A stretch of 64,000 nt of DNA from Halioxenophilus sp. WMMB6. Lineage in GTDB: Bacteria; Pseudomonadota; Gammaproteobacteria; Pseudomonadales; Cellvibrionaceae. The notes beneath the pieces are model-generated. The model was not told the origin of the DNA. It saw only the letters and a program-made list of their open reading frames with translations, and did not search any database. The DNA is taken from positions 148,807-212,806 of the forward strand of contig NZ_JAWMQR010000007.1 in the NCBI RefSeq assembly GCF_033283405.1, written 5' to 3'. How positions within the stretch are numbered: position 1 is the first letter of the stretch; the number at the start of each line of letters is the position of its first letter. Shown here in pieces: positions 6,078-44,776 of the stretch. A program made the position numbers and the translations under genes.

Positions 6078-7118
6078 ATGAAGTCACGACGTAGCTTTTT
6101 AACCGGTGCCGCCGCCCTGGCCGGTACCGCCGCCCTAACACCGCCCAAACTGTTTGCCGCCAAGCCGAAGATCACCTGGCGGATGCAGACCTACGCCGGT
6201 CCGGCCCTGGCCGAGCATGTGATTAAACCGGCGATTGAGAGCTTCAATAAAATTGCCGGCGAAGAGATGCAGATCGAACTCTATTTTGCCGACCAGCTGG
6301 TCCCCACCGGTGAGCTGTTCCGCGCTCTGCAGAAGGGAACCCTGGATGCGGTGCAGTCGGACGACGACTCCATGGCCTCACCTACCGAAGTGACCGTGTT
6401 TGGTGGCTACTTCCCGTTTGCCAGCCGCTATTCGCTGGATGTGCCGGTGCTGTTCAACCAGTACGGACTGAAAGAGATCTGGGAGGAGGAGTACGCCAAG
6501 GTGGGTGTTAAACACATCTCGGCCGGCTCCTGGGATCCGTGCCACTTCGCTACCAAAAAGCCGGTCAACAGCCTCAAGGATCTGAAAGGGCTGCGCGTGT
6601 TCACCTTCCCCACCGCTGGCCGCTTTATGGCCCAGTTTGGCGTGGTGCCCGTCTCCCTGCCCTGGGAGGATGTGGAGGTGGCGGTACAGACCGGTGAGCT
6701 GGATGGCATTGCCTGGTCGGGTATTACCGAGGATTACACCGTCGGCTGGGCCAATGTCACCGACTACTTTCTTACCAACAACATCTCCGGTGCCTGGATT
6801 GGCTCCTTCTTTGCCAACATGGAGCGCTGGAACGAACTGCCCGACAAAATGAAAGAGCTGCTTAAACTCACCTTCGACAGCTCTCACTACTATCGCCAGT
6901 GGTGGTACTGGGGTGGCGAGGCCAAGCTGCGTGTCGATGGTACCAAGATGAAGTTGACCAGCATCCCCGATGCCGAGTGGGATCAGGTGGAGTCGGCGGC
7001 ACACACCTTCTGGGATGAGATTGCCAAGGAGTCGGAGATTAAGGCCAAGGTGGTGAAAATCTTCAAGCAGTACAACGAGGATATGGCCAAGGCCGGGCGG
7101 CCCTATCGCTACAGCTAA
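6078..7118 (+). CDS. dctP: TRAP transporter substrate-binding protein (DctP-type), Tat/Sec signal peptide
   Basis: AAGGAGA RBS. N-terminal MKSRRSFLTGAAALAGTAALT twin-arginine-like signal. Periplasmic binding protein-like sequence directly after dctQM. Confidence 0.82.
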   Translation: MKSRRSFLTGAAALAGTAALTPPKLFAAKPKITWRMQTYAGPALAEHVIKPAIESFNKIAGEEMQIELYFADQLVPTGELFRALQKGTLDAVQSDDDSMASPTEVTVFGGYFPFASRYSLDVPVLFNQYGLKEIWEEEYAKVGVKHISAGSWDPCHFATKKPVNSLKDLKGLRVFTFPTAGRFMAQFGVVPVSLPWEDVEVAVQTGELDGIAWSGITEDYTVGWANVTDYFLTNNISGAWIGSFFANMERWNELPDKMKELLKLTFDSSHYYRQWWYWGGEAKLRVDGTKMKLTSIPDAEWDQVESAAHTFWDEIAKESEIKAKVVKIFKQYNEDMAKAGRPYRYS

Positions 7119-7121
7119 ACC

Positions 7122-7149
7122 AAAAATGGCGCCTTAGGGCGCCATTTTT
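7122..7149. terminator. bidirectional rho-independent terminator (aaaaatggcgcc-ttag-ggcgccattttt)
   Basis: Perfect 12-bp palindrome with A-run and T-run flanks, between convergent dctP (+) and the 7171..7932 gene (-). Confidence 0.8.
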
Positions 7150-7170
7150 TATGGGGGAGTAGTTATCGGC

Positions 7171-7932
7171 TTACCAGTCGGAGCTGCCCCAGCCGGAATT
7201 GCTGTTGATCACCTTATTGATGTTGCGGCGCTGCTCCTCAATGGAGGGGGTCTCTTTCTCTTCCGGTTTCTTCTCCGGTGCGGCGGCGGGAGCGGGTTTG
7301 GACTCGGGTGCTTTTTTGGCCGGGGTTTCATTTACCGCCAGAGCCGCCTCCCGGGCGGCACGTGCTTCGGCCTCGGCACGGCGCTTGTCGGCGTCGGCTC
7401 TGGCCGCCAACGCCCTTTTAGTTGCATCCGCTTGGGCCATCTCGGCACGCATCTGAGCGATATGCCCTTTTTGGTAGGTGACGGCCTCGGCCGCTTTTGA
7501 CTCTTCCGCTCGCAGATTATCAATCTGTTGGGCAAGGTCCTGCTGGGCACGGGCGGCTCGGTCCAGTTCAAGTTGCGCCCGGCTGACGGTCAACTCAGCC
7601 AGTGTAAACTCGCGTGACAGTTTGCTCGCCTCGCGCTCGTTGTCAGGATTTGGCTTCTCATAATTGAGGGCGATGGCTGCCTGCATCTTGCTGCCGGTGG
7701 CTTCCATTTCGGTTTGCTTCTCGGCCAACAGTTGTTCGGCCTTGGTTACTTGGCCAGTGAGCTCAGGCATCTGCTGCTCCAGCTCGGCAATTTGCGGAGC
7801 TTTATTGCTCAGTTCCTGTTCCAACTGTTGAAGCTTGGCTTGAGCCTGATCCAAGGATTCCGCCACCGCGTGAGTTGCTAATGCGGAAGTGAAACTCAAG
7901 GCCAAAACCCATTTGAATACTGCTTTTGTCAT
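7171..7932 (-). CDS. secreted coiled-coil protein with Ala/Lys/Glu/Pro-rich C-terminal tail
   Basis: Start at internal ATG 7932 gives a classic signal peptide (MTKAVFKWVLALSFTSALATHAVA). Long heptad-like LxQLEQEL / AEL...L coiled coil. Low-complexity KKAPESKPAPAAAPEKKPEEK tail. Confidence 0.55.
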   Translation of the reverse strand: MTKAVFKWVLALSFTSALATHAVAESLDQAQAKLQQLEQELSNKAPQIAELEQQMPELTGQVTKAEQLLAEKQTEMEATGSKMQAAIALNYEKPNPDNEREASKLSREFTLAELTVSRAQLELDRAARAQQDLAQQIDNLRAEESKAAEAVTYQKGHIAQMRAEMAQADATKRALAARADADKRRAEAEARAAREAALAVNETPAKKAPESKPAPAAAPEKKPEEKETPSIEEQRRNINKVINSNSGWGSSDW

Positions 7933-8312
7933 AGGAACTGCACCGTCTATAACCAATATGAATGATAACCAGGGTAATAATGCGTGAAGTCGCACGTGTG
8001 GTAAAGAATATTAATTCTAGTGCCAATGGCGCGTTTTTTCTGGTTTATCGTAGACAAGATTAGAAATAAAGCGATATTCGGCGCGAAATGGCAGAGGAAT
8101 TGTTAAATTGCTATTTGTATAGAGTATTTGTGTGAAATTTTTATTCTTTTTTGTTTGCTGTATTAAAAAAAATATAACTGCCTGAAGAAAAAAATATTTT
8201 TTCTGAGCGTATTCGTACGTGATTTTAATACCGCAAAAAAAAATTAATGGGAGAAAATTATGTCGCTGGTTATATCTCTCATTGTTATTGCACAGAAGTT
8301 GTATTTCTGTTG

Positions 8313-8590
8313 AGTTTACCAGGCGTTTGGTTTAATTCAGGTTCAGCAATATTTTTTTAACGATCAAATTATTTGGCATTTCGGAATGGCTATTTCCAGA
8401 GCCAGGTAGTTGTGTGCCGCCTTCGTTGCTTTATTGCGTAATGCCAACAGGCTACGTCAGCTATTCAACAGAAAATCTATTCCTGTTGAATTTCTTGTTA
8501 CTGCGGTTTAATTCAAACGGAGAGGAATATTTTTTAACGGCTGAATTATTGGGTATGCCGGTTACCAATTTCCTGAGACGAACAGTTGCT
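8313..8590. repeat. two imperfect direct repeats (about 110 bp units, about 166 bp apart), each containing a 7-bp inverted repeat (TTGAATT...AATTCAA / TTGAGTT...AATTCAG)
   Basis: Shared blocks ctgttga(g/a)ttt, ggtttaattca, aatattttttaacg, aattatt(t)gg seen directly in sequence. AT-rich context upstream of the Kazal lipoprotein gene. Confidence 0.6.
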
Positions 8591-8704
8591 CTGCTGAGCG
8601 AGTTATCTTTTGCGGGATACTGGCTTACTGAACCTGAACATAACGGCTGGATGACCTCCGAGCCAAAATCCCTTTTACCTGTTTATAAGATTCTGGAGCA
8701 TGCC

Positions 8705-8971
8705 ATGCAGCGTTATCGTTTTATAATGATACTGGTCGGTTTTATTTTGACTTCCTGTCAAAGTAACACGCAATCTTTGGTAGTTGATGCGGAGGTCACC
8801 GTCACTCCTGACGCGACTGTCTGTAACGAGCCGCGGCCAGAAATCTGTACGCGGGAGTATCGCCCGGTTTGTGCTCATTTGGCTGATGGCAGCACGAGCC
8901 AATATCCGTCTGGCTGTACCGCCTGTGCCGACCCAATGGTCGATGCCTGGCTGCCGGGTGAGTGCCAATAA
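8705..8971 (+). CDS. Kazal-type serine protease inhibitor domain lipoprotein (88 aa)
   Basis: GGAG 7 nt upstream of ATG 8705. Signal peptide plus lipobox ILTSC. Mature part CNEPRPEICTREYRPVCAHLADGSTSQYPSGCTACAD...GEC has 6 Cys with Kazal spacing and matches the ovomucoid third domain ([33 protein letters not shown]). Predicted P1 is Arg (CTR|EY). The longer upstream ORF (8414) is rejected. Confidence 0.72.
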   Translation: MQRYRFIMILVGFILTSCQSNTQSLVVDAEVTVTPDATVCNEPRPEICTREYRPVCAHLADGSTSQYPSGCTACADPMVDAWLPGECQ

Positions 8972-9068
8972 GTTTACCCGGTGAAGTCGGTATCTGGCTG
9001 AATTACATTCGAGAAATGGCTGTATGACACGGCAGCGGATGGCTGGCTGCCGATCAACAACTATCCCG

Positions 9069-9596
9069 CTATTGTTCGCTGCTTGCCTCGCGTCGCTGCA
9101 GTATCGCTTGCCAAAGTTGACCGTAGGCCTCCTGACCCTGCAAATTATCTTTGCAGATGGTTATGGAGTTTTGCATTTTGACCACAAAGTTCTGTTCGGG
9201 ATGAGCTAAAGAGGATTGCATATCCTGTTGAATTGCGACATTGATACGTCGACGCAACTTGGCGCCGGCTTCGCGGGCCGGGGGAAATGCCAGCTTAAAA
9301 TCATCGTAAGAGAGATTAAACGGATAGTCCCGGCTGAACAGCGTCATATCCACTGCCAGGGCGGCGCCATTGCGCAGCTCTTTGGCTTTCTGTGAATTTT
9401 CAGGGTGCTGCTCCGCCAGGGTGTCGGCCATGATGTCGTACAGGACGGCACAGGTTGCCCAGGCTTCGGCCTGCTGCGCTTTGTTTTCGATTTGGGCAAT
9501 GGGCTTGTTGATCAGCAGATAACTGTCGATCTGCGCGTGACAGAGGGCGGGCAGGCAGAGTAAAAAAAACGGGATCAATAATTGTCGGGTGGTCAT
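9069..9596 (-). CDS. hypothetical periplasmic/secreted protein
   Basis: 175 aa with N-terminal signal peptide MTTRQLLIPFFLLCLPALCHAQ. No recognisable domain. Confidence 0.55.
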   Translation of the reverse strand: MTTRQLLIPFFLLCLPALCHAQIDSYLLINKPIAQIENKAQQAEAWATCAVLYDIMADTLAEQHPENSQKAKELRNGAALAVDMTLFSRDYPFNLSYDDFKLAFPPAREAGAKLRRRINVAIQQDMQSSLAHPEQNFVVKMQNSITICKDNLQGQEAYGQLWQAILQRREASSEQ

Positions 9597-9844
9597 TACG
9601 TAAAGCCTTGCAAGCAGGAGGGAGCTGGGCGGTTACTATAGCCAGAGCCTTGGCGACTGGCCAGAGAGTGTCAACATTGAGCGGCCTGCCGTGAGTTGGT
9701 TCCCTTGCCAAATCGCTCATTGGGTGATGCTAGGTGCGTAATAAACTGCCAGGGCCGAAAAAAGGGTCAACGCGGGTAGGATGGGATTTACATCGCAGTG
9801 GCCAATAACTCGTTTCCCAGCGGGGTATGCTCCGGCGCTAACCG

Positions 9845-11224
9845 CTAATCCCGTTTGGCAGTGGCTAAACGGGCTGGCAGTAGTAGCAACACCAGCGTCA
9901 AAGGCACTACAAAGAGAAAAATTCCCCACTCAAATACCTGGTTGCCGGCTTCGCTGGTGATGGTGCTGAAGCCGGCGAGCACGATGGCCGCCAGGGCGTT
10001 ACCAGAGAGCCCACCCAGGGAGCGGTAGCTGCTGAACAAGCCCATCGCCAGTGCGCGGGATTCAGCCGGTGAGGCCTGCAGGGAAGTTTTTTGGGCAATC
10101 AACTGGCTGGCGGCCATGCCGATACCAAACAGTGCCAGAGCCAAGGCCAGGGTAAAACCGTTAAGGCAAAACAGAAACAGCAACAGTGGGGTGATCACAG
10201 CAGCCAGAGCCGCCCAGCGCAGATAGCGGTCGCCGTGTTTATCGAGCAGTCGGCCCAAGGGTGGGCTGGCGAGCACCTGGGCACCGGCGACCAGGGAAAA
10301 ATAGAGCCCCATCATGCCGCTTTCAATACCGAGGGCGGCGGCACTCCAGGCGGGTAGGGTAAAGACCACTGCAAAGTGCAAAGCAATGGCGGTTAACATT
10401 AACAGGCAGCCCAGATTAAAAGGGAAGTTGGCAACGGTTCTGAATTGTTGCCGGGAGCTATGAGAGCGGCCAATGGCCAATGCCACAGCAGCGGTGGCGA
10501 TGACAAATAACATTAGATCTAGCCAATAGGGTTCGCCCTGCACAATGGCCTGTAACGCCATGGCCAGGGGTAGCACCGGCACGCCAATAAAACTGAGCGC
10601 GGTGAAGTTGGCTGGTTGTTGCTGGCCTTTAGGAATATAAAAAAATGCCAATATAAGGGCACAAATTCCCAGTGGTACATTTAATAAAAAGAGCATCGGC
10701 CAATCAAAAAACTGCAGAATCATACCACCCAGGGTAAAGCCCAGAACGGTGGTTGCGACAAGGGCGGAATTGAGTAGGGCAACGTAGCTGGTGACTTTTT
10801 CCTTGGGGGCAACCTCGGCCACCAGTGCCATGCCGTTGGCCATAATGACCCCCGAAAAAGTTGCCTGGCCCACCCGCCAAAAAAGCAGTGCCGCGTAGCT
10901 ATCAGACAGGCCGGCCAGTGCGCTGGAGAGGGTAAAACCGACCACACCCAATATAAAAACAGTCTTGCGCCCGAGGAAGTCGCCAATACCCCCGGCCAGC
11001 GGTTGGCCGACGGCGGTGGCTGCCATAAAGTACATTACCATGGCCGACAGGTGTGCGTAGGGAACGGCAAAGTGCTCCGATAAAATTGGGTAGGAGGTGA
11101 CCGCCAGCGAGCCGTTGAGCGGGTTCAACACATAGCCGATCATAATGGCCATCATTGCGAGTAGGCGAGTGGTTTTTTTATTTGTCCCGTCTGTGGCTGG
11201 TTGCCAATTATTATTTGTATTCAT
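9845..11224 (-). CDS. MFS transporter (drug:H+ antiporter-like, about 14 TM segments)
   Basis: Polytopic membrane protein with MFS signature region GxLaDrfGRK-like (GDFLGRKTVF). Start taken at MNTNNN (11224). Confidence 0.85.
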   Translation of the reverse strand: MNTNNNWQPATDGTNKKTTRLLAMMAIMIGYVLNPLNGSLAVTSYPILSEHFAVPYAHLSAMVMYFMAATAVGQPLAGGIGDFLGRKTVFILGVVGFTLSSALAGLSDSYAALLFWRVGQATFSGVIMANGMALVAEVAPKEKVTSYVALLNSALVATTVLGFTLGGMILQFFDWPMLFLLNVPLGICALILAFFYIPKGQQQPANFTALSFIGVPVLPLAMALQAIVQGEPYWLDLMLFVIATAAVALAIGRSHSSRQQFRTVANFPFNLGCLLMLTAIALHFAVVFTLPAWSAAALGIESGMMGLYFSLVAGAQVLASPPLGRLLDKHGDRYLRWAALAAVITPLLLFLFCLNGFTLALALALFGIGMAASQLIAQKTSLQASPAESRALAMGLFSSYRSLGGLSGNALAAIVLAGFSTITSEAGNQVFEWGIFLFVVPLTLVLLLLPARLATAKRD

Positions 11225-11731
11225 AGATAATGTTTCGCATACACGAATATAAAATTTTTCAAAGAGGGGCATGGTAACCTAGCTGTGGCGTTAATCAAAA
11301 GTGCTGCTGCAACCGGTGGCTGGAATTGGATGGGTGCAAGGCGCTGTGGTTAGCGCGGTGGCAATATAAGATCAGCGCGTTGTTCGGTTTGCCTATGGCT
11401 GGGTATAAGGTGAGGGGAGCCTTGCGCGGAGTAAATGGTTAATCGATATGCACAGTAAACATTGGTAAATTCGCCGGTCAGTTCTCGGCCAGACGGCAGG
11501 GAAATAAAAAGTGTGGCAGGAGAGCGTTAAAGGAGAGCATGAAAGAGAGCGCGTATAGAAGATATAAATTAAAAGTGAAGGAAAAAGCGGCAATCAATTT
11601 CTGGGGCTGAACAGTGATTGGCTGAAGGTAGTTGGGCAAATGAGGTTGGGCAAACAAGGTAGGGTAAAAGTGATGGTGGCCAGTGATGCCTGTGCGGCCG
11701 AGGCGCTGTTTGACCACAGCGCCTGGAAATT

Positions 11732-12532
11732 TTAACGCCAGAGAAAAAAGCTGGATTTTTTACCGAGAATGGTCGGGTGGAATTGTTGGTCTGCGGCGCG
11801 ACTGTTTAACCCGTAACAGACATGCAGCGGCAGCAGGTGCTCCTCGCGCGGGTGGCAGTAGCGGGCGTAGGGCGCCTTGTGCCACTCGAGCAGTCGTTGG
11901 TAGCGCTGCTCCTCGCTCAGTTGTGGAGCGCTGCAGGTCTCGATTAACCAAGCTTCAAATTGCAGGTTTTTGTTGGTCGAGCTGGCATCGGCGGCGGAGA
12001 AAAAAGCCGGCAGATTATGAAATGAGAAACCAGAGCCGATCACCAGCAAGCCCTCGTGTTGCAGCGAGCGCAACGCCCGACCAATCTGCAGGTGTTGTTC
12101 GGCACTCATTGAGTTGACCAACGACAGCTGCACGCAGGGGATATCGGCTTGTGGGTAGAGTATTGTCAGGGGCACAAACATACCGTGATCAAAGCCGCGC
12201 TGGTCATCCATCTGGGCGGCGATGCCGGACTTCCGCAGGGCCTGTAGAATCTTGCCGGCGAGCTGCGGCTCCCCGGGGCTTGGGTATTGAATATGGTAGG
12301 ACTCCTCGGGAAAACCATAGTAGTCGTAGATCAGGCCGGGCTTTGGCGAGGCGGTAATTGTCGGTAGAGTGGCCTCCCAGTGGGCGCTGATCAGCAGGAT
12401 CGCCTTGGGTTTGCTGAGCTCACCCGCGATCTGTTTGAGGGTGGTCACCATTTCGCGATGGCCGGGGTCGCCGAGCAGGGGTAATGGGCCGCCGCCGTGC
12501 GATAGGAATAGGGTTGTGGGCTGGGTAGACAT
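11732..12532 (-). CDS. class III extradiol ring-cleavage dioxygenase, 4,5-DOPA dioxygenase family (YgiD-like)
   Basis: LFLSHGGGP N-terminal motif and His ligands (ISAHWE...) characteristic of the DODA/YgiD family. Confidence 0.8.
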   Translation of the reverse strand: MSTQPTTLFLSHGGGPLPLLGDPGHREMVTTLKQIAGELSKPKAILLISAHWEATLPTITASPKPGLIYDYYGFPEESYHIQYPSPGEPQLAGKILQALRKSGIAAQMDDQRGFDHGMFVPLTILYPQADIPCVQLSLVNSMSAEQHLQIGRALRSLQHEGLLVIGSGFSFHNLPAFFSAADASSTNKNLQFEAWLIETCSAPQLSEEQRYQRLLEWHKAPYARYCHPREEHLLPLHVCYGLNSRAADQQFHPTILGKKSSFFLWR

Positions 12533-12738
12533 AGTTTAGTAACCGAGCAGAATGGAAGGTTTCCAACTTTACCTAGGGTGGGGGCGGTAAGCCATCGCAA
12601 AAATTAGAATGCGATGTTCAAACTATTTGGCGAATAGGGTTAAACACCAGAATTTTTCGCATTGCGCAATTTCGATCAGGCATAGGTTGAGCGGGGCTGG
12701 CATTCTGCCCTGGCCAGTGTGGAACGAGCGAGCAGAGT

Positions 12739-13590
12739 ATGAGTTACCAGGAGAAGATTTCTAGGGTGTGCGATTTTATTCAGCAAAACCTGGATGAGTC
12801 GTTGCCGCTCGACCGCCTGAGCCTGGTGGCCGGGTTTTCCAAGTACCATTTCGCCCGGCTGTTTGCGGCCAACACCGGCATCACAGTGAACCGCTTTATA
12901 CAATTGTGCCGACTGCGGCGGGCCTCTTTTCAACTGGCGTTTGAGCCGGAGCAGAAAATTATTGAGGTAGCGCTGGTGGCGGGGTTTGATAGTCCAGAGG
13001 CGTTTGCCCGGGCTTTTCGCCGGGTGTTTGATCAGTCGCCTTCGGAATTCCGCGCAGCGCCTAACTGGCCCCATTGGCACGCCCAATTTGAATTCTCTTT
13101 GCCGAGATCTGAAGGACAAACCATGACTGTAACCATTGTTGATTTTCCAGAAACCAAAATTGCCTATTTAACCCACCGGGGGGCGCCGGAATCTGTGCTT
13201 AACACCGTCAGCCAATTTATCGATTGGCGCAAAACCACCGGTTTATCTCCGGTCAAAACCAGTGCCACCTACGGTATTCCCAATGGCGACCCGAACACCA
13301 TGCCGGCGGAGGATTTCCGTTGGGATGTGTGCGGTACTATTGAGGCGGATGTGCCGGACAACGCGTTTGGTGTTACCACCGGTTTTATACCCGGCGGCCG
13401 CTGTGTTCGCGTACGCCATTTGGGCAGCCTGGATAATCTGGATCAGACTGTCTACCCCATCTACCGGGAGTGGCTGCCAGCTCAGGGTGAGGAGCCCGGT
13501 GATTTTCCCTGCTTTTTTCACTACCTCAATTTTGTACATGAGGTGGCAGAAGCTGAATTGATGACAGATGTCTATATTCCACTAAAGTAG
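12739..13590 (+). CDS. AraC-family transcriptional regulator with C-terminal GyrI-like effector-binding domain
   Basis: N-terminal AraC HTH (SLVAGFSKYHFARLF...VALVAGFDSPEAFARAFRRVF). C-terminal half has the GyrI-like fold signature. Confidence 0.8.
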   Translation: MSYQEKISRVCDFIQQNLDESLPLDRLSLVAGFSKYHFARLFAANTGITVNRFIQLCRLRRASFQLAFEPEQKIIEVALVAGFDSPEAFARAFRRVFDQSPSEFRAAPNWPHWHAQFEFSLPRSEGQTMTVTIVDFPETKIAYLTHRGAPESVLNTVSQFIDWRKTTGLSPVKTSATYGIPNGDPNTMPAEDFRWDVCGTIEADVPDNAFGVTTGFIPGGRCVRVRHLGSLDNLDQTVYPIYREWLPAQGEEPGDFPCFFHYLNFVHEVAEAELMTDVYIPLK

Positions 13591-13641
13591 CCAACTCACT
13601 TTTTTATTGGGTGCGAATAAATTATTTGCGCTCCCGCCAAA

Positions 13642-13674
13642 TAAAAACCGGCCGAAAATATGGCCGGTTTTTTC
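13642..13674. terminator. bidirectional rho-independent terminator (aaaaaccggcc-gaaaatat-ggccggtttttt)
   Basis: 6-bp GC stem with A-run and T-run flanks between convergent genes. Confidence 0.75.
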
Positions 13675-13694
13675 TTTCGCAAAGTGTGCCACTT

Positions 13695-14063
13695 TTAAAA
13701 AGTCAGTGTTGCCGCGCCTTGTTTAATGCGTTCAAAAATAACGCTGGCACCGTGAATTTCCACCCCTTCGATTAAACTCTCCTGATCATAACCCCGGGCG
13801 TGGGTACAGGGTGGGCAGGCCCACACCTTACCGCCGCGGGCAATAAAGCTGGTGAGTAGCTCCTGCAGTTTTTCCATGGGGTGCACGTGGGTGTGTGGAA
13901 TACCATTTTTGCGCACCAGATCAATGGCGTTGCTGGTCAGGAACAGGCCAACATTCATCTCTGCGGTTTGGGCGCCGTTGGCCAGGGTCAGGCCTACGGA
14001 AGAGACTTCGTCGTTGATGCCTTTGGTCATTACGATAATCAGATCGGTGGTTGCGTTAGTCAT
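13695..14063 (-). CDS. DsrE/DsrF-like (YchN-fold) family protein
   Basis: 122 aa. Conserved Cys in CPPC context and overall DsrE-like pattern (IIVMTKG...GGKVWACPPCTHARG). Confidence 0.7.
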   Translation of the reverse strand: MTNATTDLIIVMTKGINDEVSSVGLTLANGAQTAEMNVGLFLTSNAIDLVRKNGIPHTHVHPMEKLQELLTSFIARGGKVWACPPCTHARGYDQESLIEGVEIHGASVIFERIKQGAATLTF

Positions 14064-25418: not shown

Positions 25419-26627
25419 ATGCCTATTAAAATGGAATTAAACAAAAATAGCGGCAACGGTGGTAAGCCGGTAAAAATTTATACGCATGACATTGAACAGA
25501 CAGCACTTACGCAGTTAAAAAATATTGCGCAACTACCATTTATTCACTCCCATATTGCCGCTATGCCGGATGTGCATACTGGTATAGGGGCAACGGTCGG
25601 TTCAGTGATTCCCACCGTGGCTGCCATTATTCCCGCCGCCGTGGGTGTTGATATCGGCTGTGGCATGATGGCAGTACAGCTCTCATTAAACTCGGCACAA
25701 CTGCCCGATGGTTTGGCGGCTATGCGCAGTGCTATTGAGCGGGCCGTGCCGGTGGGGCTGGCAGCACACAAAACGGTTGCTGTGCGGGAGAGCGCCTGCA
25801 AGCGCTTGCAGCCGCAGGTAGAGGCGCTGTTTGAACGCCACCCGCAATTGTTAAAAATGCAGAAGCACCCCAGGCAAACCTGGGCCAAGCAGGTCGCCAC
25901 GTTGGGTTCGGGTAACCACTTTATTGAAGTGTGTATCGACGAATCGAAAAAAGTGTGGGTGATGTTGCACAGTGGTAGTCGCGGGATTGGTAACAGCATC
26001 GGCCGTTACTTTATTCAGTTGGCCAAAAAAGATATGCAAGGTCATATTCATCATCTACCCGACAGAGACCTGGCGTACTTTGCTGAAGGCAATGACCATT
26101 TTGCCGACTATGTGGCGGCGGTGGAGTTTGCCCAGGAGTACGCGCGGATCAATCGGGAAGAGATGATGAAACTGGTGTTGCGCGCTATACAGCCTTTTCT
26201 ACCGGGCTTTGTTCTGCAAAAAGAGGCGATTAATTGTCACCATAATTATGTGGCGCGTGAACACCACTTTGATGCTGACGTGTATGTTACCCGCAAGGGG
26301 GCCATCAATGCCGAGCATGGGCGCTTGGGAATTATTCCCGGCAGTATGGGGGCTAAATCCTACATTGTGCGCGGTAAGGGTGAAGCGGAATCATTTTGCT
26401 CCTGCTCGCACGGTGCCGGCCGCACCATGAGCCGTACTGCGGCGAAAATGCAGTTTCGGCGCGAGGATTTAATTGCTCAGACCCGCGGTGTTGAGTGTCG
26501 TAAGGATGCTCACGTCATTGATGAAATTCCCGCGGCCTACAAAGATATCGACGAGGTGATGACCAATCAAACTGACCTGGTTGATATCGAACACACACTT
26601 AAGCAGGTACTTTGTGTGAAGGGCTAG
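25419..26627 (+). CDS. rtcB: RNA-splicing ligase RtcB (3'-phosphate/5'-hydroxyl RNA ligase)
   Basis: 402 aa. Conserved RtcB motifs (DVHTGIG, GSGNHF, HSGSRGIG, CSHGAGR) seen directly in the translation. Confidence 0.9.
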   Translation: MPIKMELNKNSGNGGKPVKIYTHDIEQTALTQLKNIAQLPFIHSHIAAMPDVHTGIGATVGSVIPTVAAIIPAAVGVDIGCGMMAVQLSLNSAQLPDGLAAMRSAIERAVPVGLAAHKTVAVRESACKRLQPQVEALFERHPQLLKMQKHPRQTWAKQVATLGSGNHFIEVCIDESKKVWVMLHSGSRGIGNSIGRYFIQLAKKDMQGHIHHLPDRDLAYFAEGNDHFADYVAAVEFAQEYARINREEMMKLVLRAIQPFLPGFVLQKEAINCHHNYVAREHHFDADVYVTRKGAINAEHGRLGIIPGSMGAKSYIVRGKGEAESFCSCSHGAGRTMSRTAAKMQFRREDLIAQTRGVECRKDAHVIDEIPAAYKDIDEVMTNQTDLVDIEHTLKQVLCVKG

Positions 26628-28126: not shown

Positions 28127-30562
28127 CTAATTACCCGCCAGCGAATATTCCTGCTGGAGCTGGTTGTTGTGTGTCAGCAACCACTCAATAAATTCTGCGT
28201 TAGGCATGGGCTTGGCGTAAAGGTAACCCTGGCCGAGGTCGCAGTTGAGCCTTTTCAAGATTTCGGCTTCGGCCGGGTATTCAATACCCTCCGCCGCCAC
28301 CAGTTTATTGAGCTCGTGGCTCAGTTCTATAGTCGCCTTAACAATGCTGTGGTTGCGCTGATTGCTATCGATGCCACGCACAAAACTTTGATCAACCTTC
28401 AGTACATCAATGGGAAACTTGGCGAGGTAGGCCAGTGATGAGTAGCCAGTGCCAAAGTCGTCCAGGGCAATGGCAAAGCCAAAATTGACCAGCCGTTGCA
28501 GGATAGTCTGGCTGATTTCCGGGTCGGTCATCAGTGCCGATTCGGTAATTTCCAGGTGCACTCGTTCGGGGTCAACCTGGTAGTTGCGAGTGCGCTCGAT
28601 AAGGTAATCGGGTAGCTGTTGATCAAACAGATTGCGGGCAGAGAGGTTGATCGACATTTTCAGATCCAGACCCTGTTGCTGCCAGGATTGCAGATCTTTG
28701 AGCGAGAGATCGATAACCTGCCGGGTGAGCGGTTGAATGTGGTCGGTCGCCTCCAGGTAGGGCATAAAGATCGCCGCGCTTAAAAAGCCCTTGGTGGGGT
28801 GGTGCCAACGTACCAGGGATTCAGCAGCGGTACAGCGGCCACTGAGCATATCGATGAGCGGCTGGTGGTACATCTCAAACTGCCCCTGCTCCAATGCCTC
28901 TGCCATACCGGCCAGAAGCTCTACCCGGGTTCTCACTTCGTTGTCGGTATCTTTGTTGTAAACGGCGATGGTTTCGTGGCCCTTTTTCGCCTGATACATG
29001 GCGATGTCGGCACAGCGCAGCAATTCGTGGCTATCCAACTCATTGGCGGCGGCCTCAACCACGCCGATAGAGGCGGCGGCCTTCAGGCTGATATCTTTAA
29101 TAACGAAGCGCTCTTCAAACAGGCTGGCTAACAGCTTGGCAAACGTCAGGCCGCCATCGAGATGCGTCTGCTGACTAACGACCACCACAAATTCATCGCC
29201 GCTTAAGCGAAAGGCCCGGGTGTCGCTGGATGGTAGGGCTTGATAGAGGCGATTGGCCAGCTGTTTAAGCAGCTCGTCGCCGATGATGTGGCCGAAGGTA
29301 TCGTTAACCTCTTTAAAGTGGTTCATGTCCAACAGCATGACGATAACCTTGGCGGCCTTCAGGTTGGCGACATAATCATGATAGGCGCGGCGGTTACCCA
29401 GCCCGGTTAGGCCATCGTATTTGGCCAGAAAGGCGAGCTCTGCCACATGCTTGGCATTGGCCACACTTAGCCCAACCGCGTGGCTAATGGTTTCAAACAG
29501 CGCCATCTCCTGATTGCTAATGGCCCGATGTGTGGCAGAGACCAGGACAATGGCACCACTGGCTTCGCCATTGCTCACCAGCGGAATGGCAACGGCAGTC
29601 TTGGGCAGATAGTTAAAAAATTCAATCAGGTGGCTGGCATCCACTTGCGCACCGTTCAGTTCGTGCTGAATCACTATCTCCTGCCGGGTTACCGACTGCC
29701 CGGAGATACTCTTTTCCATACTCACCAGTGGTGCATTGGCCAGTTCGCTGGCGGCGGCGTTGCGGCCAAAGGCACCGACGATGGTCAGGTTTTTGCCGAC
29801 GTTGTCGAGCTGCAGCATCAAGCCGTCGTCCCAGCCGTGCTTGGCCACAAAGGGCGGTAGTATGCGCTCACCCAGGTCGCGCACACTGTTGATATCCTGC
29901 AGTTGGGTGGTGATGCCGTGGGAGAGGGAGAGGATTGCCAGGTGATCATTGAGCTCTTGCTGCGACCGCAAAAAACAGATCAGCAGCAGCAGCCCCATCG
30001 AGAGGGTGGTGGCGGTGGCGAGTGTCAGGTGGCCGTACTCGTGCATTAAAGGCTGGGTGGCCGGAACCGACAGGCCAACGATAGTCATGCCCAGCATCAT
30101 AAAGCCGCGCGCCAGGAATACGCTGGCGGTGATTCTTTGCAGCACGCTTTTGGACCATAACGACCAGGCCACATGGGTCATGGCCAAGGTGGTGACCAGA
30201 GTGACGTAGAGGTGGATGATGGCAATGGAGCCGATGGCCACCCAAAGCATAAACAGCGCCATTACTAAGATCGCAAAAAGGCGTGGCCCCTTGCTGGCAT
30301 GGCGGTTTAGCCGAAACTCAAAGGCCCCCCTGGAGAGGGTGTAGACCAACGCCGAAAAGATAACGCCAGACAGCAGGGTGATGGGAAGGGAACCGTTTAG
30401 GCGCGGCGTGGCCAGCAGCTCGTCGAGCACAATAGTGAACGGGGTCAAGGCAAAGGCGGCGCCCCACCACAGAAGGTAGCGCCGCTCACGGTCGGCCCAC
30501 CACATAATAAGCAGTACAATAGCGGAGATCAGGTGGGTGAAGGGGATAAAGAAAATATACAT
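28127..30562 (-). CDS. membrane sensor with GAF-like, GGDEF and EAL domains (c-di-GMP cyclase/phosphodiesterase)
   Basis: N-terminal about 8 TM segments. GGDEF domain (RLSGDEFVVV) and EAL domain (EAL...DDFGTGYSSL) motifs present. Confidence 0.85.
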   Translation of the reverse strand: MYIFFIPFTHLISAIVLLIMWWADRERRYLLWWGAAFALTPFTIVLDELLATPRLNGSLPITLLSGVIFSALVYTLSRGAFEFRLNRHASKGPRLFAILVMALFMLWVAIGSIAIIHLYVTLVTTLAMTHVAWSLWSKSVLQRITASVFLARGFMMLGMTIVGLSVPATQPLMHEYGHLTLATATTLSMGLLLLICFLRSQQELNDHLAILSLSHGITTQLQDINSVRDLGERILPPFVAKHGWDDGLMLQLDNVGKNLTIVGAFGRNAAASELANAPLVSMEKSISGQSVTRQEIVIQHELNGAQVDASHLIEFFNYLPKTAVAIPLVSNGEASGAIVLVSATHRAISNQEMALFETISHAVGLSVANAKHVAELAFLAKYDGLTGLGNRRAYHDYVANLKAAKVIVMLLDMNHFKEVNDTFGHIIGDELLKQLANRLYQALPSSDTRAFRLSGDEFVVVVSQQTHLDGGLTFAKLLASLFEERFVIKDISLKAAASIGVVEAAANELDSHELLRCADIAMYQAKKGHETIAVYNKDTDNEVRTRVELLAGMAEALEQGQFEMYHQPLIDMLSGRCTAAESLVRWHHPTKGFLSAAIFMPYLEATDHIQPLTRQVIDLSLKDLQSWQQQGLDLKMSINLSARNLFDQQLPDYLIERTRNYQVDPERVHLEITESALMTDPEISQTILQRLVNFGFAIALDDFGTGYSSLAYLAKFPIDVLKVDQSFVRGIDSNQRNHSIVKATIELSHELNKLVAAEGIEYPAEAEILKRLNCDLGQGYLYAKPMPNAEFIEWLLTHNNQLQQEYSLAGN

Positions 30563-32942: not shown

Positions 32943-33016
32943 AGTTTTTGGCGGGATTCGAACCCGCTACCGATAGATTATTAATCTACTGCTCTACCCG
33001 AATGAGCTACAAAAAC
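32943..33016 (-). tRNA. non-canonical tRNA-like gene: full 74-nt cloverleaf, anticodon loop TTAATAA (anticodon AAT), acceptor stem GUUUUUG/CAAAAAC, no encoded CCA
   Basis: Manual fold: 7-bp acceptor, D-arm GCTC-ATTCGGGTA-GAGC, anticodon stem GTAGA/TCTAT (part of the perfect palindrome TAGATTAATAATCTA), variable loop CGGTA, T-arm GCGGG-TTCGAAT-CCCGC. Confidence 0.45.
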
Positions 33017-33145
33017 GGTGGTTTATGTCCACCCGGCAATTGGTACACACAACGGTAGTACCGCCTGCGCCGGACTGGCCTTTGGAACCAGTGCCGCTAA
33101 TTACCGGGCGAGAGATAAACTCTGTGTGGCCAATGCCTAAAAAAA

Positions 33146-33703
33146 TTAGGCTTGAGGCCAAATCCGGTTTCCGGAAAATTGCTTCTCCAGATACTCCATT
33201 TGATCCGCCAGTACTTGGTGTTGGGCCAAAAACAGCCCTTCACTCCGGTTGGGGCAGAAAGGCACCGCCAGTAACACCATGCCCGCCTGTTCCGGTGTAC
33301 GGTCGGCTTTAAAGTGGTTGCAGCGCTTACAGGCGGCCACCACATTTTGCCAACGGTTTTGGCCGCCCTGTGCGCGCGGCACAATGTGGTCGCAGGTGAG
33401 CTCACGGGCTAAAAAGCGCTGACCACAATACATACAACGGTAGTTATCCCGGCGAAACAGCAGCCGGTTGCACAAAGGTGGCGCCGGCTGTGCTTGCTGC
33501 TCCCGGCCGCGAGTGGCGATAATGGCGCGCAGAGCAATGTGGGAGCGCTGGCCGCTTGCCCGATTTACACCGCCGGTCAGGTTGAAAATTAACTCGCCCA
33601 GCTCCCACTGCACCTGATTTTTTACATAGAGCAGCGCTGCCTCCGAGCGGGATAGCCAGGCGGTGGCGGTGCCGGTGCTATCCAGGCGCAAGATGCTAAC
33701 CAT
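33146..33703 (-). CDS. HNH endonuclease family protein
   Basis: AGGAGA RBS. HNH motif CMYCGQRF...CDHIVPRAQGGQNRWQNVVAACKRCNHFKADR seen directly. Confidence 0.8.
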   Translation of the reverse strand: MVSILRLDSTGTATAWLSRSEAALLYVKNQVQWELGELIFNLTGGVNRASGQRSHIALRAIIATRGREQQAQPAPPLCNRLLFRRDNYRCMYCGQRFLARELTCDHIVPRAQGGQNRWQNVVAACKRCNHFKADRTPEQAGMVLLAVPFCPNRSEGLFLAQHQVLADQMEYLEKQFSGNRIWPQA

Positions 33704-33721
33704 GGTCTTCTCCTGGTATGG

Positions 33722-34012
33722 TTACCGATAAAAATTTGCGCCATCGATGGATCGATAGCCGCAACTGTTTAAAAGCGTGCCGAGCTGTGCCCGCCGGCTG
33801 CGATCAGATTCGGTCAGCACCACTCTGTTCGGTAGCCGTGATCGGCTTTGCGCCCAGCGTAAAACCACACAGCTGTTGTCCCGTCCGTGTAGTGAAAAGT
33901 CGACCGCCAACACCGAGATGACCAATTCGTTCAGCGCCTTTTTAGCGCTGCGGCTGTCTCTGCAGTAGAGGTCTGCACTGAACACAGCGCGTTTACCCAA
34001 AGCGACTCGCAT
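33722..34012 (-). CDS. hypothetical protein (96 aa), co-oriented 18 nt upstream of HNH gene
   Basis: Very strong SD (AAGGAGGAG) before ATG 34012. Lies directly downstream of the tRNA-Lys gene. No recognisable domain. Confidence 0.45.
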   Translation of the reverse strand: MRVALGKRAVFSADLYCRDSRSAKKALNELVISVLAVDFSLHGRDNSCVVLRWAQSRSRLPNRVVLTESDRSRRAQLGTLLNSCGYRSIDGANFYR

Positions 34013-34051
34013 TGCTTCTCCTCCTTGATGTAAAAATTGCCAATAGTTAAT

Positions 34052-34126
34052 TGGTTGGAGGTATGGGAGTCGAACCCATCTGTGCCGGAGTAAAAGTCCG
34101 GTGCTCTGCCGCTAAGCCAACCCCCA
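34052..34126 (-). tRNA. tRNA-Lys (anticodon UUU), CCA encoded
   Basis: Manual cloverleaf: acceptor TGGGGGT/ACCTCCA, anticodon arm CCGGA-CTTTTAC-TCCGG, T-arm ATGGG-TTCGACT-CCCAT, discriminator A then CCA. Confidence 0.8.
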
Positions 34127-34168
34127 ATAAAAATCCTTGGTCAATTTGTCTGCTTTACTGCCGAATAA

Positions 34169-34243
34169 TGGCAGCAGCCTCAGGGCTCGAACCTGAAATA
34201 CGTGAGTCAAAGTCACGTGTGTTACCCATTACACCAGGCTGCT
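34169..34243 (-). tRNA. tRNA-Gln (anticodon UUG), CCA encoded
   Basis: Manual cloverleaf: acceptor AGCAGCC/GGCTGCT, D-arm GTGT-AATGGGTA-ACAC, anticodon arm CGTGA-CTTTGAC-TCACG, T-arm TCAGG-TTCGAGC-CCTGA, discriminator G then CCA. Confidence 0.8.
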
Positions 34244-34279
34244 GGAGTACTAAATTTAATGGTGATCAATATCATTGGC

Positions 34280-34366
34280 TGGCAGCGGTGAGATTCGAAC
34301 TGACACGGCGCCGCAAGTCACCGCACGGATTAGTAATCCGCTGCCGTACCGTTCAGCCATGCTGCC
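34280..34366 (-). tRNA. type II (long variable arm) tRNA-like gene with anticodon loop TTACTAA (anticodon ACT; Ser-like), mismatches in acceptor (A7:C66) and T-stem (C:C); possible pseudo-tRNA
   Basis: Manual fold: GGCAGCA-TG-GCTG-AACGGTA-CGGC-A-GCGGA-TTACTAA-TCCGT, about 20-nt variable arm, GTCAG-TTCGAAT-CTCAC, CGCTGCC-A. No CCA. Confidence 0.4.
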
Positions 34367-35396: not shown

Positions 35397-37541
35397 TCAG
35401 AACTGCACCTGCACGGTGAAATCCAGTGAGCGGCCAATACCGGGCAGGCTGGTAAAGGGTTGATTGTGGTCTCCCCCAATCCAACCGGCCAGGTAAACAC
35501 CACCCAAGGGTTGTTCATAACGCTCATTGAACAGATTATTAACCGCGGCGCTCACCGTTAGTTGGCGCCACTGCCGTTGGCTCTGCAGGTGCACCAGGGT
35601 GTAGCTGTCGCTGGTGGGCTCCAGGCGCAACTCATCCACCCGCTGCTTGTCGTCGACCCATTCCATGGTCAGGCGGTTGCGCCAGCCGGCACTGGCGTAC
35701 TCTAATGCGACGCTGATATTGAGCGGCATGATGTGGTAGAGGTCGCTGCCATCGTCCCGGCGTTCGGCCCGGGTGTAGGCCAGGTGCGTGGCCAGGGTTA
35801 ATACCCCCTCGCCCGAACTAAACAGTTGCCTCTGACCATCAATCTCAATGCCGTAGAGGGTTGCGTCCAGGTTGGTGAATTGCAGCTCCGGGCGGGTGAC
35901 CGCCGGTGATTGGCGCGGGTGAAAGCTGCCCACCACCTCGGCATCGATAAAATCATCTACCCGGGTGTAGTAGGGGGCCAGGCTGAGCTTATTGTTGTCG
36001 TCGCTTTGCCATTGATAGGTGGCGGCCAGGCTGTGGGCCACCTCTGGGTTGAGGTCGATATCGCCAATGTAGCCGTTGCCATCGCCGTACCAGCCGATCA
36101 TGGCGCTGGCCATGGGGCTGCGCCCCCAGCTGTAACGCTCGTACAGGTTGGGTGAACGGGTTTTGCGGCCGTAACCGAGCTCCAGGCTCTGCTGGCTGTC
36201 GATGGCGTAGCCAACCAGGGCGGTGAGGTCGAAGTTGTCGTCCCGGCGGTTGCGGTGGCTGCTGTTAAAGGCCAGCGCGGCTGCGGCATCGGGGTTGCTG
36301 GGCATGATGTTGTAGGGCTGCACCGGGTCTGTGGTCATCGCCACCCGTTCGTAGCGCACTCCCAGTTGCGAGCGCCACTGTTCGCTCAGGCGGTTATCGC
36401 TCTCGGCATAGAGGGCGTAGCGGGTGCGTTCGCCGTTGTTGATGTTCACATAGGTATTGGGGCCCATCATCATGGAGCCCGGCACCGCCGGCCACCAGTC
36501 ATCGAGGGTGAATTGGTGCAGTTCGTGGCCCAGGCGCAGCTGGTTGCCCGCACCATAGGGCAGGGTGGCGGCAATGGTGTAACCCAGGTCGCGTCCCTCG
36601 GTGAACATGGGCATGGTGCCCGGCTTCTCCTCGCTGAAGAAGCCCATGGCGTGCTCCACATCTTGCCAGCTGACGCGGCTATCGAGCAGCCCCCAGTCGA
36701 ATTGACGCTGATAGTTGAGGTTGGCGCCGGTAGTGCGGTTGTCGACCATATCCATGTACTGGTTGGGGAAACCCTGGTAGGGGATCTGCTGGTGGTTGAG
36801 TTTGAGCGTCAGCGATTCCACCTCGCTTCGCCAACCCAGAGTGAGCCCGTGGTTTTCGCTTTTATAGAGGGTATCTTGCACCTTGTCGCCGCTGCTGTCG
36901 CGGTAACTGTCGGCCTCGCTGGTGCTGCCGCTGTAGGCCAGGCTAAGCCGGTCGTTGGCCACCCCGGCCCGCAGCGTCAGCCCCTGTTGGTGGCTATTGT
37001 TGCTGTAGTTGAAGGCCAGCGCCAGGTTGGTCTGCAGTGACTCGCCGGCCCGGGCGAACTGGGGTGGTTCAGAGTTGATAACAATGGTGCCGCCAATGCT
37101 ATCGCCGCCGCTGCTGACCGGGGTAATGCCGGCCATTACCTCCACGCTGTGTACCCGGCTGGCATCGACGTAGGAGAGTGGCGGGTTCATATGGTTGGCG
37201 CAGGCGGAGGTGGTCTCGGCACCATCGACCAGCAGCTTGATGCGGTCGTCGTTCAGGCCGCGCACAATTGGCAGGCTGGCCACCCCACCGCCACCGGCAA
37301 AATCGACCTTTTGTAAGCCCGGCAGGTTGGCGGCATTGCCGCTGCCCTGTAGCTGTGATTGTGCGTGGGCAGTAACCTCCACCTGTTCAAGCAGTGGCTC
37401 GGCTGTGGGGTTGGCTGTGGTTGCCGTTTGGGCGGTGGCCAGGCTGCTGGTGATTAACAGTGGCAGGGTACGCAGAGTGAAGCCGGTGGTTCTGCTCTTG
37501 GCCCCTATCGGCATTGCAAGCTGAGTCGGTTTGGCCACCAT
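35397..37541 (-). CDS. TonB-dependent outer-membrane receptor
   Basis: GGGGGA RBS before ATG 37541. Signal peptide. Plug domain and a C-terminal beta-barrel ending with terminal F (…TVQVQF). Confidence 0.85.
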   Translation of the reverse strand: MVAKPTQLAMPIGAKSRTTGFTLRTLPLLITSSLATAQTATTANPTAEPLLEQVEVTAHAQSQLQGSGNAANLPGLQKVDFAGGGGVASLPIVRGLNDDRIKLLVDGAETTSACANHMNPPLSYVDASRVHSVEVMAGITPVSSGGDSIGGTIVINSEPPQFARAGESLQTNLALAFNYSNNSHQQGLTLRAGVANDRLSLAYSGSTSEADSYRDSSGDKVQDTLYKSENHGLTLGWRSEVESLTLKLNHQQIPYQGFPNQYMDMVDNRTTGANLNYQRQFDWGLLDSRVSWQDVEHAMGFFSEEKPGTMPMFTEGRDLGYTIAATLPYGAGNQLRLGHELHQFTLDDWWPAVPGSMMMGPNTYVNINNGERTRYALYAESDNRLSEQWRSQLGVRYERVAMTTDPVQPYNIMPSNPDAAAALAFNSSHRNRRDDNFDLTALVGYAIDSQQSLELGYGRKTRSPNLYERYSWGRSPMASAMIGWYGDGNGYIGDIDLNPEVAHSLAATYQWQSDDNNKLSLAPYYTRVDDFIDAEVVGSFHPRQSPAVTRPELQFTNLDATLYGIEIDGQRQLFSSGEGVLTLATHLAYTRAERRDDGSDLYHIMPLNISVALEYASAGWRNRLTMEWVDDKQRVDELRLEPTSDSYTLVHLQSQRQWRQLTVSAAVNNLFNERYEQPLGGVYLAGWIGGDHNQPFTSLPGIGRSLDFTVQVQF

Positions 37542-38104
37542 GTTTCCCCCTTGGTAGAGCGCGATAAAAACGGAGATCGAGATTAAATCGGAGGGAGTAT
37601 AAAGGCGGGGCTGGTGCCGCCGAGCGTGACATAATGTCGCACACCCGTGGTCGACGGCCTGTGGCCTGCATCTGGGGTGGCTGAAAAGCGGTAAATTCGG
37701 CGCTGGCGAGATGATCAAGCGCGAACAGTGGCTAGCCGCGGCTATTTAGCCTTTGCCACGAAATTGTTCGTAGCAGGCCCTTGCAGGCCGGCGGCACAAT
37801 ACTAAAGTCCAATTGCCTCGCGTTGTCGTATCCAGTTCACTCGTGGCTGGCTCGCTGGGGCCTTCTACCCACCTGGCGAGTTGCTTGGCGCTACGACTTA
37901 ACTATTCAGTCAAAACCTGCCCGGTTGTTACCGCCGCCCTCCAATAAAAAAATCATAGAGCAAAACTTATTCTTCGTATCTGCAGACCTATTGCCGGGTG
38001 ATGCTGTGCTTGGAATTTATTTTTTTATGCCTGCCCTCAGGCGTATTACTTAATTATTTAAAACGGGTGTTTTACTCAAAACTAACACGGTGTTTGGAGT
38101 ACCC

Positions 38105-44511: not shown

Positions 44512-44776
44512 AAATAAGGTTAGTCCGGTAGTCAAATGCCAGGAGAGGCTGCCAGCCTCTTTCTGCTCCAAGTTGTTTTCAGTGTTAAGTAACTATTGGC
44601 TATTTGCCGCCAGTTGTTGCCTACGCTGTCGGCAAAAAAGTAAAAACAATAACACCACATGGATGGGAAATTTCTTGTTGTGCTTTCATGCAAAGCTATT
44701 GTGCTGTGGTGGCTAGGTTCTGCCGCATGCGCCGCATGCTTTACTCATATAAAAAACGATAATAAAGGTGATACAC

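Follow-up and report, generated by a model that had tools for sequence, protein, structure and literature searches.

A Kazal-type lipoprotein of Halioxenophilus sp. WMMB6 is a divergent member of a large bacterial family and a predicted inhibitor of trypsin-like proteases

We analysed a 64-kb stretch of the genome of Halioxenophilus sp. WMMB6 (contig NZ_JAWMQR010000007.1, positions 148,807 to 212,806; hereafter the window, in whose own coordinates all positions are given). A small gene in this window encodes a lipoprotein precursor with a single Kazal domain, the reactive-site loop of which is that of the turkey ovomucoid third domain (OMTKY3) with Arg in place of Leu at P1. Kazal inhibitors are textbook animal proteins that have more recently become known as oomycete and apicomplexan effectors. 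The protein described here is a divergent member of a large bacterial family that has so far been recognised by automated annotation only, and only in part. On balance, we think it probable that the protein is a cell-envelope-anchored inhibitor of trypsin-like proteases, and we tentatively propose a defensive role, which would make it functionally analogous to ecotin. What is of interest is the family, for its size, its lipid-anchored architecture and the fact that no experimental study of any bacterial Kazal family member was found in the literature searched; the locus itself is ordinary.

Results

The gene encodes a lipoprotein precursor

The open reading frame (ORF) has 88 codons on the + strand, from an ATG at 8705 to a TAA at 8969-8971, as read from the sequence and its translation (features of the locus are collected in Table 1). 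Its 88-amino-acid (aa) product is MQRYRFIMILVGFILTSCQSNTQSLVVDAEVTVTPDATVCNEPRPEICTREYRPVCAHLADGSTSQYPSGCTACADPMVDAWLPGECQ, and the protein string quoted in the original prediction agrees exactly with this translation. The mechanical ORF list also holds a 185-aa ORF from GTG 8414, which is an in-frame upstream extension of the 88-aa ORF and nothing more. The precursor has cysteines at residues 18, 40, 48, 56, 71, 74 and 87. Its N-terminus has the parts of a lipoprotein signal: an n-region with R3 and R5 (MQRYR), a hydrophobic h-region (FIMILVGFI), and LTS directly ahead of C18, giving the lipobox ILTS|C18. The lipobox was judged by eye against a PROSITE PS51257-type pattern, [LVI][ASTVI][GAS]-C in the first ~35 residues. 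Cys18 is predicted to be lipidated, in which case the mature lipoprotein has 71 aa (C18-Q88, N-terminus CQSNTQ). The original prediction had described a 66-aa mature domain, starting at CNEPRPE; this does not hold, as the mature protein starts at C18 and the domain proper has 48 aa (C40-C87). The tether between the anchor and the domain varies in length and sequence across the family alignment, and in an AlphaFold2 (AF2) model it has predicted local distance difference test scores of 50-75 and lacks secondary structure save for a two-residue bridge at 38-39. A weak Pfam match to Lysis_col (E=0.041) spans residues 5-21, that is, the lipoprotein signal alone, and was rejected as an indication of function.

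The protein is at most 62% identical to any sequence among 5.8 billion clustered proteins. The product was not found in the protein collection with any of four start-codon variants, though both flanking genes of the contig are present there. The flanking RefSeq proteins are WP_317932215.1 and WP_317932217.1, with the number WP_317932216.1 skipped between them; the source genome may lack an annotation for this ORF, or the ORF may be the skipped WP_317932216.1. Halioxenophilus sp. WMMB6 is a marine gammaproteobacterium, and the EutB encoded in the window is 100% identical to the EutB of this strain. NCBI taxonomy places the genus Halioxenophilus in Alteromonadaceae, and a 2024 genome announcement reportedly groups it with genera of one family, said to be Cellvibrionaceae.

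The domain belongs to the Kazal family

The cysteine spacing of the domain, 7/7/14/2/12, fits the pattern of Kazal-type inhibitors (Pfam PF00050/PF07648, MEROPS I1), C1-x7-C2-x7-C3-x10ish-C4-x2-C5-x12-17-C6. When the whole window is translated in all six frames, this six-cysteine spacing is found a single time, as compared with 0.05 occurrences expected per shuffled window. A Pfam scan of the 88-aa protein gave Kazal_1 as the sole domain-level match (E=3.5e-4, 20.9 bits, gathering score 21.0), and an NCBIfam scan of the same protein gave no match. Single-sequence phmmer against the Protein Data Bank (PDB) returned marginal matches (E ~0.05) that were nearly all Kazal inhibitors, the top one being OMTKY3 with Arg at P1 (2nu2_I). 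The family alignment, which consists of the window protein and 13 homologues from a word-indexed search of the 5.8-billion-cluster protein set (all of them metagenomic and <=62% identical), gave firmer matches: all 14 sequences match Pfam Kazal_1, with a best E of 1.1e-6, and the family profile has 38 matches in the PDB, almost all to Kazal inhibitors and mainly to ovomucoid third domains, the best again being 2nu2_I (OMTKY3 L18R, E=4.9e-4).

In a global alignment, C40, C48, C56, C71, C74 and C87 are in register with OMTKY3 C8, C16, C24, C35, C38 and C56. The same alignment has a 4-residue insertion in the C3-C4 hairpin, and the C5-C6 segment carries a 5-residue deletion. By BLASTP, 14 of 32 aligned residues are identical to OMTKY3, with two gaps (pairwise E=5e-5), such that an earlier description of the domain as matching OMTKY3 almost residue for residue is apt for the reactive loop but not for the domain overall. 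The predicted model has the short helix on a small three-stranded sheet that characterises the Kazal fold, and it superposes on OMTKY3 at 2.0-2.5 A. Based on the cysteine register and this superposition, the disulfides are predicted to be C40-C74, C48-C71 and C56-C87 (1-5/2-4/3-6). We consider it very probable that the protein is a genuine Kazal-fold lipoprotein, and the original prediction of a Kazal-type domain on a bacterial lipoprotein is upheld by the Kazal_1 match, the matches of all 14 aligned sequences, the PDB profile matches and the lipobox. The outcome that was to count against that prediction, lack of any Kazal profile match, did not arise.

The reactive-site loop is that of an ovomucoid with Arg at P1

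Residues C48-T49-R50-E51-Y52-R53-P54 are the same as OMTKY3 C16-T17-L18-E19-Y20-R21-P22 save for P1, where Arg replaces Leu. The segment that follows C2 is a canonical reactive-site loop, with Cys at P3, Thr at P2, Glu at P1', Tyr at P2', Arg at P3' and Pro at P4'. HMMER aligns ctreyrpvc of the window protein with CTREYRPLC of 2nu2_I, confirming the assignment of Arg to P1 that had been made from the sequence. The classical Kazal inhibitors OMTKY3 and SPINK1 (MEROPS I1, Pfam PF00050) share the six-cysteine register and the C-T-x-E-Y-R-P loop with the window protein. They are, however, secreted free, whereas the window protein is bacterial and predicted to be lipid-anchored through its N-terminal lipobox and tether, with four more residues in the C3-C4 hairpin and a C5-C6 segment that is five residues shorter and has a short helix.

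These features suggest the following mechanism. The precursor would be exported via Sec, lipidated on Cys18 and cut by signal peptidase II. Sorting of lipoproteins in E. coli follows the Lol '+2 rule', and since the +2 residue here is Gln, not Asp, Lol-dependent transfer to the outer membrane is probable. The domain, stabilised by three disulfides that would form in the periplasm, would hang from its lipid anchor on the ~21-residue flexible tether and so present the loop. The substrate-like loop C-T-R-E-Y-R-P would block a serine protease at its active site, following the standard (Laskowski) mechanism. Arg50 would enter the S1 pocket, which would make trypsin-like (Arg/Lys-specific, S1 family) enzymes the likeliest targets. 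Inhibition of serine proteases is, in our assessment, likely; a trypsin-like target is favoured with moderate confidence.

The family is large and combines a conserved scaffold with a variable P1

In an exhaustive profile search of genomes and metagenomes, 2,218 representatives of 50%-identity clusters reached E<=1e-3, and 948 of them E<=1e-10. Loop and domain counts were taken from the best 150 of the 2,218 profile matches. Among these best matches are 64 single-domain relatives of ~85-140 aa, almost every one of which has a signal peptide ending in Cys; a Cys stands ahead of the domain in 58 of 63 of them, and lipoboxes are visible in the genomic loci. In the 63 single-domain relatives with the core motif, P2 is Thr in 62 and P2' is Tyr in 61, while P1 is Arg in 44, Met in 9, Gln in 7, Lys in 2 and His in 1. 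A further 95 relatives are longer, most with 2-11 Kazal repeats, in which the scaffold is kept and a great variety of residues is seen at P1 (R, L, M, K, Q, A, E, D, F, T). Pfam matches Kazal_1 in 53 and Kazal_2 in 25 of these longer proteins, with E-values down to 1e-72. A few of them (among P0014-P0159) combine Kazal repeats with Kunitz_BPTI, Inhibitor_I78, SSI, DUF333 or CBM_2; these would be composite, multi-class bacterial protease inhibitors. No protease fusion was found by Pfam among the 95 longer relatives. A conserved scaffold, a variable P1 and fusion to other inhibitor families are together the signature of true canonical inhibitors.

These data bear on two other readings. The fold could serve as a membrane-tethered, disulfide-rich binding or structural module that inhibits nothing, as in follistatin, agrin, SPARC and the SLCO transporters. 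We regard this as very unlikely, since the P3-P4' loop is the same as that of a textbook inhibitor save for P1, the top sequence matches are true inhibitors rather than follistatin modules, and relatives come as tandem arrays in which P1 varies and as fusions with three further inhibitor families. Alternatively, the protein could inhibit mainly subtilisin-like (S8) or other non-trypsin proteases, with Arg at P1 tolerated and not determining specificity. P1 Arg is, however, the classic determinant for trypsin-like S1 pockets and is the commonest P1 residue in single-domain members (44 of 63), and we consider this reading highly improbable.

Carriers were also sought by a scan of one genome per species (185,579 species) with two sequence patterns. 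Relatives occur in 82 of these species, mostly marine Gammaproteobacteria, including Halieaceae, Cellvibrionaceae, Spongiibacteraceae, Porticoccus, Thiotrichaceae and Chromatiales. Other carriers are Methylophilaceae, Hyphomonadaceae and other Alphaproteobacteria, Myxococcota and a few more, and, judging by record titles, taxa found chiefly in marine or aquatic settings predominate. An earlier statement that Kazal domains are rare in Proteobacteria therefore fits sequenced genomes as scanned by pattern, but not marine metagenomes, given the 2,218 clusters from genomes and metagenomes. MEROPS lists a few bacterial I1 homologues. The literature searched, which did not include the review of prokaryotic inhibitors by Kantyka et al. 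(2010; cited in PMC4189545), contained no paper with the phrase 'bacterial Kazal' or describing such an inhibitor.

Across the family alignment, a 'PRPE-I' motif before C2 is invariant and 'CTACAD' stands at C4-C5; both set the bacterial family apart from OMTKY3. Halieaceae members found with the loop-independent CTACAD pattern have the loops CTMEF, CTREF or CTMQF, with Met or Arg at P1, and further lineages have CTNEY, CTQIY or CTRIY. One known relative, Dasania phycosphaerae WP_258331653.1, has the same architecture as the window protein (lipobox, short tether, one Kazal domain, CTREYRPVC loop). At the Dasania genomic locus (L008), the match spans residues 6-88 with 40% identity; the representative of its 90%-identity cluster (P0009) likewise shows 40% identity, in an alignment that covers 94% of the query. 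NCBI labels this homologue 'hypothetical protein' and UniRef labels it 'Kazal-like domain-containing protein'.

Several variants of the architecture were seen. In Alphaproteobacteria the lipoprotein is longer, has an additional Cys-rich module and a Kazal_2-like '...PVCGCDGxTY...' domain, and retains the PEICTREY loop; in Hyphomonadaceae and relatives (L059-L078, L080) a ~65-residue linker carries the module CGGIAGxxCPxGxxC...C, followed by '...PVCGCDGxTYxNxC...'. In one subfamily (L018, L020, L021, L028, L032, L043, L051, L053-L056; P0011, P0013), an insertion of ~12-15 residues between C3 and C4, unlike anything in OMTKY3, contains two extra cysteines (e.g. ...GVRCVTTPCPSTE...), implying a fourth disulfide that is foreign to classical Kazal domains. 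Two-Kazal-domain lipoproteins are encoded at L040:7755-8600, in a metagenome-assembled genome labelled as a Methanosarcinales archaeon, and by P0033. Their P1 residues are Met and Lys in L040 and Met and Arg in P0033, and the two share a Cys-rich C-terminal extension of ~130 residues that closes with '...DENGxxSxAIA'. A binning error may explain the archaeal label of L040.

No serine-protease motif is linked to the family in 80 loci

We scanned the surroundings of the gene family for proteases. Within 8 kb on either side of the gene in 80 genome loci, and throughout the 64-kb window, no ORF of >=150 aa carries an S1 (GDSGGP or TAAHC) or S8 (GTSMAxP) active-site motif. A relaxed protease-motif scan (ORFs >=180 aa) gave spurious matches only. 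None of the window neighbours, which are eutBC, a TRAP transporter, two signal-peptide proteins without a Pfam match, an MFS transporter and a LigB-type dioxygenase, recurs beside homologues. All-against-all clustering of neighbours revealed synteny that is lineage-specific only and involves housekeeping genes, for example a short-chain dehydrogenase/reductase (SDR), PCMT, SurE and seryl-tRNA synthetase in Hyphomonadaceae.

The lack of a linked protease gene in any lineage, together with the carriers being largely marine heterotrophs, favours a defensive role, in which the protein would shield envelope proteins against trypsin-like proteases of foreign origin, be it from grazers, from animal or algal hosts or from competing microbes. 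We put this role forward tentatively. The competing explanation is that the lipoprotein inhibits an endogenous periplasmic or surface serine protease, such as a trypsin-like enzyme, secreted or GlyGly-CTERM-anchored, whose gene lies in another part of the genome, and thereby protects the cell from its own enzyme or times the activity of that enzyme. Strong retention of the P1-Arg loop in single-domain lipoproteins of distant lineages would fit a conserved, specific partner, the envelope anchor sits where exported proteases pass, and our view of the genome spans 64 kb, such that the target could be unlinked. Dedicated inhibitor-protease pairs are, however, often adjacent, as with the metalloprotease-inhibitor pair aprA/aprI and with staphostatin-staphopain, whereas here no ORF with an S1 or S8 motif was found in the 80 loci from many lineages and gene neighbourhoods are not kept across lineages. 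Moreover, lipoproteins that are otherwise alike do not all share one P1 residue (Met, Gln and Asn occur). We consider an endogenous target unlikely.

Several observations weigh against a defensive, envelope-anchored trypsin inhibitor of the Kazal type, starting with the family assignment. For the single sequence, the Kazal_1 score is 0.1 bit under the gathering threshold, and the alignment reaches C1-C5 only (profile positions 1-33 of 49). A Foldseek search of the PDB gave no significant E-value (best 0.52), though both of the top two matches were Kazal inhibitors. Classical Kazal domains have a longer helix after C4 than does the AF2 model. The loop-bracing 'spacer' Asn of Kazal domains (OMTKY3 Asn33) is not kept: it is Ser69 here and Thr in most relatives, with Asn retained in a minority (e.g. 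'...TYGNAC...'). This Asn is a typical and not strictly a defining Kazal feature, and Ser or Thr at the site could donate a hydrogen bond. The apparent loop invariance in the first alignment is partly a search artefact, because that alignment came from a word-indexed search and the loci came from the PEICTREY pattern. We had considered that an invariant loop might mark a specific target free of an arms race; this idea was down-weighted, as loop-unbiased matches also have Met, Gln, Asn or Lys at P1. Not every Kazal-like domain inhibits proteases, follistatin, agrin and SPARC being examples. Lastly, the 64-kb view of the genome leaves room for an unlinked endogenous trypsin-like target, and the target class, localisation and defensive role are predictions.

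Comparison with known inhibitors

The likeness of the predicted inhibitor to ecotin (MEROPS I11, a periplasmic serine-protease inhibitor from E. coli and other Gram-negative bacteria) is one of proposed role only, namely that of an envelope-located inhibitor of foreign trypsin-fold proteases that has no link to an endogenous protease. Ecotin is likewise without an endogenous target (ecotin review, PMC9904509). By contrast, its fold and mechanism are unrelated: ecotin is a soluble dimer of broad specificity with two sites that bind two protease molecules, whereas the window protein is predicted to be a monomeric canonical inhibitor with 48 disulfide-rich residues on a lipid anchor. Pfam and NCBIfam scans gave no ecotin family match for the window protein.

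Other microbial Kazal inhibitors, Phytophthora EPI1/EPI10 and Toxoplasma TgPI-1, act on the serine proteases of another organism (PMC1236909, PMC5700374). These oomycete and apicomplexan proteins are tandem arrays with varied P1, as are the bacterial multi-domain relatives. Unlike the window protein, which is prokaryotic and single-domain, with a predicted lipid anchor, three predicted disulfides and Arg at P1, they are secreted, soluble proteins of eukaryotes whose domains often have two disulfides; the targets of EPI1/EPI10 are subtilases.

If the proposed explanation is correct, a lipid-anchored, ovomucoid-like trypsin inhibitor would add a second class of envelope-protecting inhibitor beside ecotin, and would offer a testable handle on the resistance of free-living or host-associated marine bacteria to foreign proteases. 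A broader and rather doubtful extension is that a large marine-bacterial family of envelope-anchored Kazal inhibitors acts as an anti-digestion or anti-predation shield against trypsin-like proteases of protist or animal grazers or hosts, the Kazal counterpart of ecotin. With a bacterial family of such breadth, it would again have to be asked whether the Kazal fold arose in bacteria or is a eukaryotic invention passed to a few bacteria. The small size of the domain (48 residues) and its predicted disulfide stabilisation make it a possible inhibitor scaffold.

Composition of the locus and other features of the window

Table 1. Features at and beside the Kazal lipoprotein gene, in window coordinates
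Feature	Position	Strand	Basis
Hypothetical protein, 253 aa, WP_317932215.1; signal peptide, coiled-coil, Ala/Glu/Gln-rich, without Pfam match	7171-7932	-	
AT-rich intergenic region, 709 bp, 37% GC, lowest-GC stretch of the window	7996-8704	.	Composition
Shine-Dalgarno GGAG, 6 nt before ATG	8695-8698	+	Read from sequence
Complete coding sequence of the Kazal lipoprotein precursor, stop included	8705-8971	+	ORF and translation; homologues kept in >100 loci
Lipoprotein signal peptide, residues 1-17, MQRYRFIMILVGFILTS	8705-8755	+	Lipobox L15-T16-S17 ahead of C18; sequence
Cys18 codon, predicted lipidated N-terminus of the mature protein; +2 = Gln, not Asp	8756-8758	+	Sequence
Flexible tether, 21 aa, residues 19-39, QSNTQSLVVDAEVTVTPDATV	8759-8821	+	AF2 model, family alignment
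Kazal domain C40-C87, 48 aa, six Cys (40, 48, 56, 71, 74, 87)	8822-8965	+	
Reactive-site loop P3-P3', C48-T49-R50-E51-Y52-R53	8846-8863	+	HMMER alignment to OMTKY3 variants
P1 Arg50 codon; predicted scissile bond Arg50-Glu51	8852-8854	+	
Hypothetical protein, 175 aa, WP_317932217.1; signal peptide, without Pfam match	9069-9596	-	

The gene had been described as lying in an AT-rich islet that looks horizontally acquired. The region upstream of it is indeed AT-rich (window mean GC 55.3%), and the third-codon-position GC content (GC3) of the gene, 0.528, is the lowest of 16 neighbouring genes (range of the others 0.588-0.828); both are compatible with transfer. The gene itself, however, has 52.8% GC, and no integrase or mobility genes, flanking repeats or adjacent tRNA genes were found at the locus, the tRNA genes being 24 kb off. 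Composition and patchy distribution are together compatible with horizontal acquisition and do not prove it.

The AT-rich region presumably holds a promoter or regulatory region; a promoter and terminator scan of it gave weak sigma-70-like matches, no more than in shuffled sequence. It contains a degenerate tandem duplication of ~177 bp (8270-8446 versus 8447-8623, ~55-65% identical, with a 32-nt core at 75%), which could be regulatory or the remnant of an insertion, and imperfect inverted repeats at 8143-8168/8223-8248 and 8287-8313/8465-8491. Genes at ~7.1-14 kb have a GC3 of 0.53-0.71, generally below that of genes at 0.8-7.1 kb and 15-20 kb (0.71-0.83). This 7100-14000 block, which may be an accessory region, contains two Pfam-less signal-peptide proteins, the MFS transporter, the LigB dioxygenase and an AraC/GyrI-like regulator. 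A megablast search with window positions 1-25000 gave only 74-80% matches, to the eutB and TRAP genes, indicating that this part of the window is not a known plasmid.

Among the homologous loci, those of Halioglobus and Haliea (L006-L058, e.g. L027:6002-9709) have a same-strand run in the order secreted M20 peptidase, Kazal protein, Na+:dicarboxylate/amino-acid symporter and MBL-fold hydrolase. This Halieaceae arrangement hints at a link to peptide or amino-acid scavenging in that lineage only. Elsewhere in the window are a cytochrome P450 gene (23847-25136), RtcB (25419-26627), a GGDEF-EAL protein (28127-30562), a four-tRNA gene cluster on the - strand (32943-34366), a MalT-like LuxR regulator (57610-60414), and three TonB-dependent receptor genes within one 22-kb stretch (35397-37718, 44768-47017 and 55102-57432).

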